Source of the DNA: an uncultured Clostridia bacterium
Lineage (GTDB): Bacteria > Bacillota > Clostridia > TANB77 > CAG-508
Direction of reading: 5' to 3'
Length of the DNA stretch: 64,000 bases
NCBI GenBank assembly: GCA_947632745.1
Contig: CANRQH010000001.1
Location: forward strand, 17,386 to 81,385
Shown: positions 34,797-42,715 of the stretch, one piece after another
Layout: the number at the start of each line of letters is the position of its first letter
Numbering within the stretch: position 1 is the stretch's first letter
The notes under the pieces: model-generated
Seen by the model: only the letters and a program-made list of their open reading frames with translations
Databases searched by the model: none
Told to the model about the DNA's origin: nothing
Position numbers and translations under genes: made by a program

Positions 34797-34936
34797 AAAA
34801 AGGTGTGTAATTCAAGTTTTCTGTTTAATCGAAATAATAGTTTTCTTTTTGGTGGTACCCCCTCATCCCGAGGGATTCCACCACTTAAAAAGAAAACTAT
34901 TATTTCTGACGCGAAAACTTAAATTACACACCTTTT
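34797..34936. repeat. MITE-like palindromic foldback element, copy 1 (~140 bp), with terminal inverted repeats ggtgtgtaatt/aattacacacc.
   Basis: Internal perfect 20-bp inverted arms (gaaataatagttttcttttt / aaaaagaaaactattatttc) plus inner stems (ggtgg/ccacc, ccctc/gaggg). It is flanked by an A-run and a T-run. A near-identical copy lies in inverted orientation at 42574-42715. Confidence 0.7.
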
Positions 34937-35034
34937 CTTAAAGTCAAAATTTATAATAAAAATAGGTGTTGCAAATTTTTTTTAAGTAGTATATAATTTC
35001 ATTAAAATACCGGAAGTAAAAAAGGTGATATAAA

Positions 35035-38000
35035 ATGGAAGAAATTTATGAATTAACAAACCCACAAAAAAGTATCTATCTTACAGAGCAATACTTTCAA
35101 AACACTACAATTAACAACATATGCGGAAGCGTTCTTATAAGACAAAAAGTTAATTTAAAAATATTAAATACAGCAATCAATTTTTTTGTAAAAAACAATG
35201 ATAGTTTTAAATTAAGATTTAAATTAGAAGATACAAAATTAGTACAATATTTTACAAAAGATGAATTCTATAATTTCGAAGTAATTAATATAGAAGATGA
35301 AAGTCAAATTGAAGATTTGGCTAAAAAAGAAGTTAACACAAAATTTGATTTATTTGACTCACGCTTATTTGAATTTAAATTATTTAAACTACCTTCTGGT
35401 TTTGGTGGATTTATTATAAATGCACACCACATAATTTCTGATGCTGCAACACTTTCTATGCTAGCTGTAGAAATTATTCAAAATTATTCTAAATTATTAA
35501 AAAATGAAACAATTGAATCCAAACCATATTCTTATGTTGATTATATAAATTCTGAAAATAAATATCTTAAAAGTTCTCGTTTCGAGAAAGATAAATTATA
35601 TTGGGATGAAGTTTTAGATGCTCTTCCTGATGTTGCATCTTTCGTCCCTCAAAATACAGAAAATATTGATATACCTAGTGCTAAAAGAGAAGAGTTTCCT
35701 TTAGATTTAGCATTAGAAAATGAAATAAAAAAATATTGCACCCAAAATCATATAAGTATGTACAATTTCTTAATCGGAATTTATGCAATATATCTTGGAA
35801 AAATAAATAATATGGAAGTATTTACAATAGGCACACCTGTACTAAATAGAACAACTTTGGCTGAAAAACAAACAGCAGGAATGTTTATTAATACTTCTTT
35901 ACTTAAAATAGATATTTCTGAAAACATACCTTTTAAAGAATTTTTGCAAAACATTGCCACAGAAACAATTGGTATGCTCAAACATCAAAAATATAATTAT
36001 CAATATATTTTAAATGATGTAAGACAAAAGGATAAATCTATCCCCAATTTATATGATGTACTTCTTTCTTATCAAGTAACAAAGGCAACCGATTCGAACT
36101 TAGATGTTCCTTATTCGGCAAAATGGTATGGGACTGATTTCATTTCAAATTCTTTAAATGTACATTTTCATGATATTGATAATACTGGAAGTTTAATTGT
36201 TGAATATGATTATAAATCATCAAAAATTTCAAGTAGTGAAATCAAAAAAATGCATAATAGAATTATCGAAATGTTTAAACAAGTCTTATCAAATGAAAAT
36301 ATACAAATTTCTGATTTTGAAATAGTTACAGCTGATGAAAAAGAACAATTAATTAATACTTTTAATAAAACAAATTATGATTACCCTAAAGATAAAACCC
36401 TTTTTGAGCTATTTGAAGAACAAGTAAAACTTACCCCAAATCGCACTGCACTTGTTTTTGGAGAAAAAAAATTAACTTATAAAGAATTAAATGAAAAAGC
36501 AAATAGTTTAGCAAATTATTTAAGAAATCATAACATAGAAAATAATAGCATTGTAGGCATTATGATTAACCGTTCATTAGAGATGATAATTGCAATTTTA
36601 GCTGTTTTAAAATCAGGTGGAGCTTATATTCCAATTGACCCAGATTATCCATCTGATAGAATTGATTATGTATTAGAAAATAGCAATTGTTCAATTGTTT
36701 TAACTAGTAGAAAATTATTTGATAAAATTAAAATTAATTGCAAAAAAGTAGATATTAATTTATCTAATCACTCTATATATAATTTACCAAAAGACAATTT
36801 ACCTTCTATCTCTAAGCCCGATGACTTATCTTATTTAATATACACTTCTGGCTCAACCGGAAAACCAAAAGGTGTTATGCTAACACAAAAAGCATTGGTA
36901 AATCTTACTTATTATTGCAATAATAATATTCCTTATTTAAGGGATAGAGAACACATATCTATTGTTTCTATTACAAGTGTTAGTTTTGATATTTTCATTT
37001 TTGAAACTCTTATATCTCTACAAAGAGGATTAAAATTAGTAATTGCAAACAGTAATGAACAAACTATTCCCTCTTGCTTAAACAGTTTAATAGAAAAAGA
37101 AAATATTCAAGCCATACAAACCACACCATCTAGAATGCAATTATTTTACCAACATATAAAAGATATTCCTAAATTACGTAATTTAAAATATATAACTTTA
37201 GCTGGAGAGCCTCTTTCTATTGTTTTGAAAAATAATTTACTTGAACTAACACATGGAAAAATTTTTAATGGTTATGGACCAAGTGAAACTACTATATTTT
37301 CTACTTTAACTGATGTAACAAATCAAAAAGAAATTACAATTGGTAAACCATTATATAACACACAAATTTATATTTTAGATAAAAATCTAAAACCTTGCCC
37401 TATCGGTGTTTCTGGAGAAATTTACATTGCAGGAGATGGTGTAGGACTTGGATATATGCAAAATTCAGTTTTAACTAAAAAAAGCTTTATTACTAATCCT
37501 TTTTCTGAGACAAGCCCTATTATGTATAAAACAGGTGATACAGGTATTTACAAGAAAAATGGAGAAATAATGTGTCAAGGTAGAATAGACTATCAAGTAA
37601 AAATGAGAGGATTAAGAATTGAACTTGAAGAAATAGAAAAAGTAATGCTTGATTATCCTTCTATTCATAATTGCGTAGTTATGAAAAAAGTATCTAGTAA
37701 AAATCATGAATTTTTATGTGCTTATTACACTTCTGATGAAACAATTTCTGAAAGTGAATTAAGAGCATTACTAAGAAAAAAATTGCCAAATTATATGATA
37801 CCAAAATATTTTGTAAAACTAGATACATTACCATATACACCAAATGGAAAAATAGATAAGAAAAAATTACCAACTCCTTCTTTTAATGTAAAACATAAAG
37901 AAATTGTTGAACCTAAAACTACTATTGAACTTGAAATATGTGAAAGTATTAAAAATATGATTTCAAACAAGCAAATATCAATTAAAGATAATTTTTTTGA

Positions 38001-41525: not shown

Positions 41526-42570
41526 ATGAGAATTGGAAATGTCGAAAATTCACAAAATATTCAAAATTCTTCTTATAAAATCTTAGCAGTCGACGATGAA
41601 ATAGGTATAATTGACTCATTATCAATATTTTTAAAAAGATCTGGTTACTCTTTTACAGGTATAACAGATCCTATGGAAGCAATTGAAAGAATAAAACATG
41701 AACATTTTGATTTACTACTTTTAGACTTTATAATGACACCACTTCACGGAGACCAAGTTGTAGAAGAAATAAGAAAATTTAATAAAGAATTATATATTTT
41801 ACTTTTAACTCGGACACAAAGATTTAGCTCCTCCATTAGAGACAATTAAAAGGCTTGATATTCAAGGGTATTGTGAAAAAAGTGATAAATTTGACCAATT
41901 ATTGTTATTAATTGAATCTGGTATTAAGTCTGTTGCCCAAATGAACGAAATTAAGAAAATAAATGAAGAGTTAGAAAATGCATATTTAGAGAGTATTCAG
42001 ACTTTACGTTATACAGTTGATGCAAAAGATACATACACTAGAGGTCATTCTGATAGAGTTTCAGAATATTCTGTTTTAATAGGAAAACATTTAGGGTTAT
42101 CAGAAAACGATTTAAAAACTTTAAGAGTTGGTGGTTTATTCCACGATATTGGAAAAATAGGTGTTCCTGACAGTATTTTACTAAAAGAAGGTAAACTTTC
42201 TGATAATGAATATTCAGAAGTTAAAAACCATCCATCTATCGGTGCTCATATTTTATCTGGTGCATCTATCTTCAAGGATATTATTCCTATAGTTAAACAC
42301 CACCATGAAAGATATGATGGACATGGATATCCTAGTCAATTAAGTGGAGAAAATATTCCTTATTTTGCAAGGATTACAGCTATTGCAGATAGTTTTGATG
42401 CTATGACATCAAAAAGAGCTTATCGTGATAGCATGCCAATAGATAAAGTAATTTCAGAATTTGAAAATGGTAAAGGCACTCAATTTGATCCTAAATTAAC
42501 TGATTTATTTTTAGATATTTTAAGAAATCATTTTGATGAAATCAATGAAATACAAATCAAATATAAATAA
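41526..42570 (+). CDS. Response regulator with a REC domain fused to an HD-GYP (RpfG-like c-di-GMP phosphodiesterase) output domain. The frame is broken at the in-frame CGG at 41811-41813.
   Basis: ORF 41487..41849 (REC: 'ILAVDDE', 'DLLLLDFIMTPLHGDQV') ends 12 codons after the break. Removing the C in 'act CGG Aca' gives 'ILLLTGHKDLAPPLETIKRLDIQGYCEKSD...' and continues into ORF 41902..42570. This contains 'HSDRVSEYS', 'GGLFHDIGK' and 'HHERYDGHGYP' (HD-GYP). Confidence 0.75.
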
Positions 42571-42573
42571 TTA

Positions 42574-42715
42574 AAAAAAAATGATGTAATTTAGTTTTCG
42601 CGTCAGAAATAATAGTTTTCTTTTTAAGTGGTGGAATCCCTCGGGATGAGGGGGTACCACAAAAAAGAAAACTATTATTTCGATTAAACAGAAAACTTAA
42701 ATTACATCATTTTTC
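42574..42715. repeat. MITE-like palindromic foldback element, copy 2, in inverted orientation relative to copy 1.
   Basis: The reverse complement matches 34797-34936 at all but a few positions. The terminal inverted repeats are atgatgtaattt/aaattacatcat. It lies between the convergent response-regulator and tex genes. Confidence 0.7.

Follow-up and report, generated by a model that had tools for sequence, protein, structure and literature searches.

Genes and paired hairpins at the locus

The stretch of DNA analysed here (the window, 64 kb from an uncultured Clostridia bacterium) contains a block of genes for a single-module NRPS, a sensor histidine kinase (HK) and a response regulator (RR), which is bracketed by two hairpin elements and neighboured by the genes for a diacylglycerol kinase (DAGK) and for Tex (Table 1). 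The domain content of the block, C-A-T-R NRPS, kinase, REC and HD-GYP, agrees with that given in a first-pass annotation of the sequence, but the regulator is split into two ORFs by a +1 frameshift (one additional C near 41810). In the relatives L078, L082 and L083 this gene is intact and encodes 356-361 aa. The NRPS shares only 61% identity with its orthologue in the relative L076, compared with 90-98% for the flanking genes, while the GC content is the same inside and outside the block. As already noted in the first-pass annotation, no transposase or recombinase domain was detected by domain search among the genes between the two copies, and the scanned ORFs of the 64-kb window include no integrase, transposase or invertase/recombinase; the neighbourhood consists of core housekeeping genes. 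A promoter-like site lies just 3' of the left element, inside the bracketed segment, and its sequence is kept in L076, which carries no element.

Table 1. Positions of genes, hairpin elements and the candidate promoter in the window.
Feature	Position	Strand	Remarks
DAGK (diacylglycerol kinase)	34352..34753	+	Left neighbour; 3' end abuts left element
Left copy	34797..34936	.	A-run, outer arms, core, T-run; orientation A
Left core	34814..34918	.	105 nt, conserved; 20-nt perfect arms 34831-34850 and 34887-34906
Candidate NRPS-operon promoter, TTGCAA-17-TATAAT	34969..34997	+	Consensus match only, 10/12
Single-module NRPS, C-A-T-R, 1407 aa	35035..39258	+	Domain search
Sensor histidine kinase (HAMP, HisKA, HATPase_c)	39296..41323	+	Domain search
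REC-HD-GYP response regulator	41487..42570	+	Two ORFs: REC 41487-41849, HD-GYP 41902-42570
Right copy	42573..42714	.	Orientation B, reverse complement of left copy
Right core	42594..42698	.	105 nt, conserved; 20-nt arms 42606-42625 and 42662-42681
Tex (RNA-binding transcription accessory protein)	42729..44912	-	Right neighbour; convergent on right element

The two elements are, as first described, a near-identical pair of about 140 bp in inverted orientation. Their arms (34806-34941 and 42571-42706; 136 nt, 92% complementarity) form the longest inverted repeat of the window, and the left and right copies are 97.6% identical over 123 nt by blastn. The terminal inverted repeats reported earlier are present at both copies (GGTGTGTAATT/AATTACACACC on the left, TGATGTAATT/AATTACATCA on the right), as are the flanking A-run and T-run. 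Neither copy contains an ORF, and each fills its spacer: the left copy lies 3' of the DAGK stop (34753) and 5' of the candidate NRPS promoter, while the right copy occupies the gap left by the HD-GYP gene (stop 42570) and Tex (stop 42729), which converge there.

Within each 105-nt core, the perfect 20-bp palindrome of the first-pass annotation takes the form of two 20-nt arms that are indeed perfectly complementary but lie 36 nt apart, and thus do not make up a contiguous palindrome. Every arm of both copies carries the 20-nt word GAAATAATAGTTTTCTTTTT once, which gives four occurrences where 0.18 would be expected by chance. The left core contains two asymmetric bulges, TGTTTAATC and TGACGCG, as well as the central GC stems GGTGG/CCACC and CCCTC/GAGGG; in orientation A, the TGTTTAATC bulge comes first on the + strand. 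Pairing between the arms extends from end to end of the element, and either strand of each copy folds up as a single long hairpin of -61 to -74 kcal/mol, in comparison to about -20 for shuffled sequences (z = -12.6 to -14.6; 0/200 shuffles fold as well). In the outer arms, compensated changes occur in three pairs. At the left copy the palindrome reaches slightly further, with GACTTTA...TAAAGTC at 34788-34945. A parent IS would be expected to carry the sequence TGTGTAATT at its ends.

Distribution, orientation and conservation of the element

Copies at both junctions are found only in one species-level clade, consisting of the window, the ENA contigs L074/75 and the rabbit-gut MAG Lapin-022__bin12, whose junction contigs L032 and L051 carry the elements. 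Members of this clade have Tex proteins that are at least 98% identical and a nucleotide identity of about 95%. In the relatives L076-L083, no copy of the element was detected by blastn, even at E=10. Two of these pairs, L076/77 (Tex 94%) and L082/83 (Tex 86%), nevertheless hold the NRPS-HK-RR block in the same slot between Tex and HtrA, element-free at both junctions, and the orthologous L076 spacer lacks the left element, with the segment inserted relative to L076 spanning approximately 34791-34956. The NRPS and HK genes are missing from L078-L081, and the element is missing there too. In the comparison raised by the first-pass annotation, presence of the island varies among relatives, and the sequences that span the region (window, L074 and L075) agree in gene order.

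A third copy was found on contig L025 of the Lapin MAG, between convergent genes for a GH57 branching enzyme and GlyRS. All three loci are occupied in the one species clade and are empty or different in relatives with 86-94% Tex or 91% GlyRS identity; look-ups of GlyRS homologues for the empty site of the third copy returned unrelated gene contexts that lack the element. The dozens of genome-wide copies considered in the first-pass annotation did not materialise, as an exact 19-mer marks only three loci in the species-representative MAG. Among GTDB genomes the same 19-mer has 69 matches, most of them single chance matches, and the real ones are the three loci of one MAG. Plasmids and phages gave no element match by blastn, and exact-word scans of JGI metagenomes and IMG/VR returned nothing or only single-arm chance matches; as these word scans gave no extension, the family is known from one species only. 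In Rfam, gathering-threshold and E-value searches found no family, only sub-threshold matches to plant miRNA hairpins, which are generic long hairpins. Exact look-ups of HtrA and ABC-F for further strains found neither on record.

The orientation of the left copy differs within the clade. In L032 its flanks are identical and its core is reverse-complemented (orientation B), while the window and L074 have orientation A. The two copies thus form inverted repeats in the window and L074 but direct repeats in the Lapin MAG, so that their relative orientation is not conserved. In L032, copy-specific SNPs connect the bulge in its reversed position with the arm that faces DAGK. An assembly artefact is an unlikely source of the flip, since the arm SNPs found only in L032, AAGCTTTC and ATGTATAATT, lie on one continuous sequence with the reversed bulge, and the contig, 37 kb long, extends beyond the element on both sides. 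Which way round the element lies is expected to matter little, as its sequence nearly equals its own reverse complement. The left core shares with invertons the arrangement of inverted repeats flanking a segment that is found in both orientations; an inverton was ruled out, however, given that neither copy contains a promoter-like site and no recombinase is encoded in the window.

Across three genomes, the six left and right copies of the 105-nt core differ from each other at 0-3 positions, while four-fold sites differ by 11-17%, giving binomial P values of 1e-6 to 5e-4 per pair. The bulges TGTTTAATC and TGACGCG are unchanged in 6/7 copies. The L025 copy has 7-9/105 core differences, which is near neutral. 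Conservation of the core, unpaired bulges included, exceeds what is expected of a decaying selfish insertion or of a terminator retained for its structure only. Unbiased gene conversion alone would not be expected to reduce divergence between genomes, and the core is either constrained or being refreshed.

Likeness to terminators and to known repeats

The element is found at gene 3' ends in all three cases, and a tract of U4-U9 directly follows the stem on both strands. The features of a bidirectional intrinsic terminator, a stable hairpin with a U-tract on both strands at gene 3' ends, are thus present, in line with the first-pass proposal of a MITE-like foldback that could also be a terminator. 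A simple terminator scan did not call the element hairpins, as they exceed its stem and loop limits, with a stem far longer than that of canonical terminators and an AU-rich base. In element-free relatives, the same spacers hold ordinary hairpin terminators or REPs; at the right junction this applies to L076, L078, L080 and L082. The most probable role of the element is that of a terminator working in both directions, or of an insulator. Derivation from the native terminator between Tex and the regulator was also considered and rejected, since the resemblance of the right outer arms to the L078 terminator is not significant (P 0.05-0.07).

Under the definition of bacterial MITEs in PMC3184786, the element qualifies by its small size (<200-400 bp), the lack of a transposase gene, its terminal inverted repeats, and its dispersed copies with a non-conserved distribution. 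No target-site duplication, a feature raised in the first-pass annotation, is visible: at none of the three loci does a direct repeat abut the ends, and the A-run and T-run beside them mirror each other as inverted, not direct, repeats. Comparison of the filled site with the empty site of L076 is ambiguous in this AT-rich sequence. No parent IS or transposase for the element was found, and the window contains no transposase.

Among described families, Correia/NEMIS elements of Neisseria and RU/ERIC-type elements of enterobacteria (PMC3184786) are likewise shorter than 200 bp, non-coding and bounded by terminal inverted repeats, form a long RNA stem-loop, lie in intergenic regions next to gene ends, and show presence/absence polymorphism between related genomes. 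Those families have tens to hundreds of copies and terminal inverted repeats around a non-palindromic core, whereas the present element has three known loci, no detectable target-site duplication and no identified cognate IS, and is a near-perfect hairpin over its whole length. The bcr1 repeat of the Bacillus cereus group (~155 bp; PMC3184786 after Okstad 2004, Klevan 2007) is similar in being a Firmicutes-type, AT-rich, non-autonomous repeat of about 150 bp with a non-conserved distribution among close relatives and structure-preserving compensatory changes. However, bcr1 has 5-bp direct repeats and a two-stem, cruciform-like RNA, in contrast to the single 60-pair hairpin without direct repeats seen here, and there is no sequence similarity between the two. 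A known dispersed repeat, located at gene 3' ends and with a predicted structure that mimics an intrinsic terminator, is similar in both respects but differs in sequence and host; the element described here has a symmetric layout of A-run, hairpin and T-run, and is thus terminator-like on both strands. REP/BIME/REPIN sequences and their RAYTs (PMC2817692; PMC3733652) also comprise extragenic palindromes at gene ends, and the clade has a RAYT-like gene near the locus. REPs, though, are GC-rich, 20-40 nt in length and usually present in more than 100 copies, unlike this AT-rich single hairpin of 140 nt at three loci, and the RAYT-like gene is flanked by a different REP and not by the element.

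The boundary of an integron cassette was rejected as an explanation of the element. Such boundaries come with a nearby IntI integrase and with small cassettes in direct arrays. No integrase occurs among the scanned ORFs, and the bracketed segment is 7.6 kb in length with its own candidate promoter. The attC/VCR consensus is RYYYAAC for R'' and GTTRRRY for R'. The candidates GTTTAAT and ATTAAAC fail this consensus at position 4.

Origin of the bracketed arrangement

The reading favoured here, with a probability of roughly 0.6, is that of a small, lineage-restricted MITE/REP-like repeat, two copies of which were inserted beside an already resident block that is not a mobile unit. The repeat would be a non-autonomous palindrome of about 140 nt in which a conserved core of 105 nt is enclosed by outer inverted arms that vary. 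The block predates the elements, as relatives have it at the same position with both junctions element-free; the NRPS-kinase-regulator genes would first have resided between Tex and HtrA/DAGK, and the copies would have been inserted later at gene 3' ends, neither bringing in the block nor defining a mobile unit. The distribution of the element suggests that it is itself mobile. Of the possibilities listed in the first-pass annotation, a dispersed REP/Correia-like family that happens to flank the operon fits best, given the third copy at an unrelated locus and the position of all copies at gene 3' ends. Each copy would form a long hairpin, as a DNA cruciform or in RNA, with the stem followed by a U-tract in transcripts of either strand. 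The probable effect is bidirectional transcription termination or 3'-end protection, which may insulate the operon on the left from DAGK read-through and on the right from convergent Tex transcription. The flip of the left copy could have involved its own arms or those of another copy, by way of recombination, template switching or ectopic gene conversion.

The composite transposon proposed in the first-pass annotation, in which the elements serve as terminal repeats for a trans-acting transposase that moves a 7.6-kb NRPS-HK-RR cargo, is suggested by two near-identical, inverted elements with terminal inverted repeats that bracket a block containing no transposase, by the fact that two of three known copies flank this block, and by documented MITE pairs that mobilise cargo, such as the integron mobilisation unit (IMU), in which two small elements of this kind also bracket several genes (PMC3184786). 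Here, however, the cargo predates the elements, being present without them at the same site in L076/77 and L082/83, and the elements are confined to the youngest clade, so block and elements were not gained or lost together. The outer flanks share no direct repeat at the ends (left, ...GACTTTATC; right, TAATAAAATTTT...), the ends lack the fixed relative orientation of a transposon, as the direct pair of the Lapin MAG demonstrates, and element-free L076 has kept the region of the candidate NRPS promoter that immediately follows the left element. This proposal is accordingly barely credible. A role as recombination substrate, also raised in the first-pass annotation, would have the copies invert the operon when inverted, or excise it when direct, creating population heterogeneity. 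Recombination between near-identical stretches of 105-136 nt that are separated by 7.6 kb is physically possible, the left copy was demonstrably rearranged in one lineage, and NRPS/HK content varies in the wider clade. Yet no contig has the block inverted or deleted: gene order is the same in the window, L074 and L075, with which the Lapin junction contigs L032 and L051 agree. Furthermore, inversion would not switch expression of an operon whose candidate promoter lies within the segment, no invertase is encoded nearby, and the lineages without NRPS/HK also have no element, leaving nothing that ties it to their absence. Rearrangement of the operon by the copies is therefore improbable.

Rather more weight can be given to a host-domesticated module, though this too is unlikely. 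In this reading the 105-nt core with its bulges is no passive repeat, and purifying selection maintains it as a sequence-specific site, for instance a cruciform bound by a protein, a site of RNase III processing or a structured RNA in a 3'-UTR. The near-invariance of the core in orthologous and paralogous copies, far below four-fold-site divergence, and of its unpaired bulges argues for such a site. On the other side stand the restriction to three loci in three genomes, the almost neutral L025 copy, and the lack of an Rfam match, while the flip, in showing independence of orientation, speaks against a strand-specific RNA; conversion from an active master copy selected for mobility could explain the conservation instead. 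The more specific proposal that the core is a host-retained palindromic module recruited to both operon ends, which it insulates or co-regulates, and kept by selection while able to flip without loss of function, is distinctly unlikely. Lastly, a REPIN-like element might be mobilised by a RAYT-like Y1 (HUH) transposase, a 243-aa Y1_Tnp/REP_Tyr_transpos-like gene product whose gene neighbours Tex in close relatives; in L074/75 and L078/79 it is located between ABC-F and Tex, some 2.3 kb away from the right element. HUH single-strand transposition of the IS200/IS605 type would leave no target-site duplication and a fixed 5' motif, and the element has no such duplication and a TTTAT[C/T] motif 5' of its A-run, in fixed element orientation, at three of three loci. 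The gene is flanked, however, by a different, GC-rich REP (TGATGCTTTTGGGGACGGAG / CTCCGTCCCCAAAAGCATCA, of the GGGGACGGAG type), which is its expected cognate and which, rather than the 140-nt element, is spread over the wider clade; L078/79 have the gene without the element, the window has the elements without the gene at that site, and the NCBIfam score of 69 is below the cutoff of 80. Mobilisation by this enzyme is very improbable, and the specific link was ruled out by the difference between the element and the REPs that flank the gene in L074.

With insertion of a lineage-restricted repeat beside a resident block as the preferred reading, the seeming element-bounded biosynthetic island is better described as an NRPS locus of long standing, passed on vertically and hypervariable in its interior, at which repeats were gained later; annotation as a mobile island is not warranted. 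The repeat represents an unrecorded family in a lineage of uncultured low-GC gut Clostridia. Its in-place flip, together with core conservation beyond that of synonymous sites, may make it a useful, if small, example of the maintenance and reorientation of palindromic repeats, though neither observation alters the current understanding of MITE/REP-type elements.

Two side observations concern DAGK, the C-terminus of which, next to the element, differs between lineages; for the DAGK variant P0241, the contig stops 42 nt beyond the gene, which makes it uninformative for the element site. In addition, two of the three known copies lie 7.6 kb apart, a proximity with a roughly estimated probability of 2-3% under random insertion. 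This closeness is mildly non-random and hints at local duplication or at a link to the operon.

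Structure, conservation and distribution of the hairpin element

The window is of low GC content (about 27%), and its longest inverted repeat (34806-34941 with 42571-42706; 136 nt, 92% pairing) is formed by the two hairpin elements that bracket the NRPS, histidine kinase and REC-HD-GYP regulator genes. The first-pass annotation had described near-identical inverted hairpins here, and folding bears this out, with either strand of the element predicted to form a single hairpin of ~60 pairs (-61 to -74 kcal/mol; z -12.6 to -14.6). From the outside in, each copy comprises an A-run, an outer arm (GGTGTGTAATTCAAGTTTTC in the left copy, TGATGTAATTTAGTTTTC in the right), an asymmetric internal loop (TGTTTAATC facing TGACGCG), a perfect 20-nt arm (GAAATAATAGTTTTCTTTTT; 4 matches in the window vs 0.18 expected) and a pair of short GC stems (GGTGG/CCACC; CCCTC/GAGGG) that enclose a 5-nt loop. 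The second half mirrors the first and ends in a T-run. Aligned with its own reverse complement, the element shows about 77% identity.

Features of the window and of related loci
Feature	Position	Remark
Left copy of element	34797-34936	read directly from sequence
Right copy of element	42573-42714	read directly from sequence
Conserved 105-nt core	34814-34918, 42594-42698	left and right copies
C-A-T-R NRPS	35035-39258	
HAMP/HisKA/HATPase kinase	39296-41323	
REC ORF	41487-41849	
HD-GYP ORF	41902-42570	
GC-rich REP motif	41324-41365	once in window, after kinase gene
GC-rich REP-like hairpins	L074 9020-9050 and 9905-9990	around RAYT-like gene
GC-rich REP-like hairpins	L082 12184-12312	
Prophage	L078 8528-17132, L079 9638-16366	tyrosine integrase, S24 repressor, RecT
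VirD4/TraG-type gene	46769-48808	T4SS coupling protein
Palindrome I2	61725-61994	77-nt arms, 116 nt apart

An exact-word scan of GTDB, with one genome per species, returned 69 loci, of which only three carry the element. These three belong to one rabbit-gut MAG, 'uncultured Clostridia bacterium Lapin-022__bin12'. Two are the orthologous DAGK/NRPS (L032) and HD-GYP/Tex (L051) junctions, and the third (L025), at an unrelated site, lies between the convergent genes for a GH57 branching enzyme and GlyRS. Two of three known copies thus surround one operon, a mild excess. In addition, the ENA contigs L001-L004, identical to the window, carry the left copy (L001 ends inside it), and L074/75, with Tex 98% identical, carry both. 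There was no match in plasmids and phages (blastn), JGI metagenomes or IMG/VR, and Rfam has no family for the element, giving only generic long-hairpin matches far below threshold.

At four-fold degenerate sites of the NRPS, Tex, ABC-F and HD-GYP genes, the window, L074 and the Lapin MAG are 11-17% different, whereas any two left or right copies of the core, orthologous or paralogous, show only 0-3 differences in 105 positions (binomial P 1e-6 to 5e-4 per pair at a neutral rate of 12.5%). Since this is far below four-fold divergence, the core may be under purifying selection or may be renewed time and again from a conserved master copy. The outer arms are more variable, with three pairs changed on both sides and complementarity kept, and the L025 copy has 7-9 differing positions. 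The flanking A-run and T-run prolong the palindrome, and at none of the three loci do the element ends adjoin a direct repeat. TTTAT[C/T] lies just 5' of the A-run in orientation A (TGTTTAATC ahead of the 20-nt arm) at all three independent loci, a hint that the motif is either a target or an asymmetric extension of the element end.

The bracketed block and its relatives

Domain search recovered four ORFs between the two copies and confirmed the genes originally proposed (C-A-T-R NRPS, kinase, REC and HD-GYP), none of them with a transposase or recombinase domain. The surroundings are core housekeeping genes (MinC, PBP2, MreBCD, RadC, MecA, HtrA, Tex, ABC-F, DnaJ and Mur ligase), with no integrase among the window ORFs scanned.

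Tex neighbourhoods were compared across ever more distant relatives. In L076/77 (Tex 94%) and L082/83 (Tex 86%), the block occupies the same slot, from DAGK/HtrA to Tex and from HtrA to Tex, respectively, with no element detected even by blastn at E=10. The element is also absent from L078/79 (Tex 89%), where an intact regulator beside Tex is followed by a prophage, and from L080/81 (Tex 87%), where only the regulator is found. The DAGK-NRPS spacer is 101 bp in L076 vs 282 bp in the window, and the sequence immediately right of the left element is kept in L076, including a promoter-like TTGCAA-17-TATAAT (34969-34997), indicating that about 166 bp (34791-34956) were inserted in the window relative to L076. 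Given a same-slot block without elements, the sequences indicate that the block was already present in the ancestor of a clade far broader than the element-bearing one and that the elements are late insertions. The 'island' framing, in which a MITE-bounded composite or mobilisable unit was carried by the elements, is therefore wrong.

Several features of the block vary among lineages. An extra C (+1) at 41805-41815 (aactCggacac), common to the window, L051, L074 and L076, divides the regulator between two ORFs; L078 and L082 lack this insertion and have an intact gene (356-361 aa). The HD-GYP part downstream is still well conserved. Candidate explanations are a tolerated split, programmed frameshifting and an old pseudogene. 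The NRPS is hypervariable in its conserved slot (35035-41323 compared), with 61% amino-acid identity vs L076 and 35% vs L082; the kinase is intermediate (85% and 44%), and the flanking DAGK, REC, HD, Tex and ABC-F are 86-98% identical, suggesting allelic replacement or fast diversification of a biosynthetic gene. C-A-T-R NRPSs in gut Clostridia make dipeptide aldehydes or pyrazinones. The prophage of L078/79 directly adjoins the intact REC-HD-GYP gene, at the NRPS and kinase site of other lineages. The last 6-8 DAGK codons, together with the spacer leading to the left element (window 34720-34790; L074 20130-20170), differ wholly between lineages (…IIYIITNK in the window and L032, …IIEMIPTHL in L074, …IILKLQK in element-free relatives), possibly the scar of a local rearrangement at the edge of the insertion.

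Orientation, candidate function and affinities

The left copy is in orientation A in the window and L074, while L025 and all right copies are in B. In L032 the left copy is also B, yet both flanks are colinear with the window; the two copies are thus direct rather than inverted in the Lapin MAG. Assembly ambiguity is unlikely, because copy-specific arm SNPs go with the flip, which is internal to a contig of 37 kb. Had the left and right copies crossed over with each other, the operon rather than the element would be inverted, and as no contig shows an inverted operon, the flip is local. It likely arose by recombination or template switching inside the palindrome, or by ectopic conversion from another copy paired in an alternative register, which the self-similarity of the element would permit.

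Every copy has U4-U9 directly after the hairpin on both strands, and each of the three loci lies at the 3' end of a gene: one separates co-directional genes, the other two convergent ones. Matching spacers of element-free relatives hold ordinary terminators. Between the regulator and Tex these relatives carry structures of other kinds; for example, L078 has an ordinary hairpin terminator that is bidirectional (z -6.8), L080 a perfect palindrome of 25 bp and L082 GC-rich REPs. Most economically, the element would be a putative bidirectional terminator or 3'-end-protecting hairpin insulating the operon. A simple terminator scan did not call the element hairpins, as their stems are too long for that scan.

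Under the MITE definition (PMC3184786), the element has the expected size, terminal inverted repeats, non-coding character, long stem-loop and patchy distribution, but no target-site duplication. It is similar to SPRITE (terminator-like repeats) and bcr1 (a Firmicutes repeat), and more loosely to Correia elements, but shares no sequence with them and has a much lower copy number. Judged on the features that define REP/REPIN, attC sites and invertons, it is none of these, and the pair behaves differently from MITE-bounded mobilisation units. The structure is real, and the sequence family is a new one among MITE-like repeats; two features, the flip in place and a conservation of the core well above that of synonymous sites, set it apart from the entirely routine.

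Between ABC-F and Tex, L074/75 and L078/79 carry a RAYT-like Y1 gene. The window lacks this gene and has a 160-bp gap (44913-45071) at its site. The 243-aa product matches Pfam Y1_Tnp (E-value 1e-9) and NCBIfam REP_Tyr_transpos (69 bits, under the cutoff of 80). GC-rich REPs of its own, TGATGCTTTTGGGGACGGAG and complement, lie on either side of the gene; their hairpins (GGAGACGGAG...CTCCGTCCC plus a T-run) form a family unrelated to the ~140-nt element, and a RAYT-driven element is therefore not supported.

Other features of the window

The VirD4/TraG-type gene stands alone amid housekeeping genes, its position kept in L074, L076 and L082. At 23275-25114 and 27162-27656, PBP2 appears as two ORFs (dimerisation and transpeptidase) and the MreB ORF spans only profile positions 1-153 of 327, which could be assembly frameshift errors or real pseudogenes. 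Positions 1-21095 hold very large minus-strand ORFs (1568, 2044 and 1501 aa) that look like repeat-rich surface proteins, with 1-10 kb segments duplicated ~10.8-11.5 kb downstream (~11.5-20.3 kb; 74-96% identity), internal tandem repeats of 441/438/429 bp and a 12/24-nt periodic tract at 6543-6818. GC falls to 12-16% at 55000-57000, a stretch with AT-rich short repeats (family D15) within a 1148-aa ORF (53950-57396) whose L074 counterpart matches AddB_N/PDDEXK_1. Palindrome I2, imperfect (73% complementary) and unrelated in sequence to the ~140-nt element, is found in the spacer preceding the Mur ligase gene.
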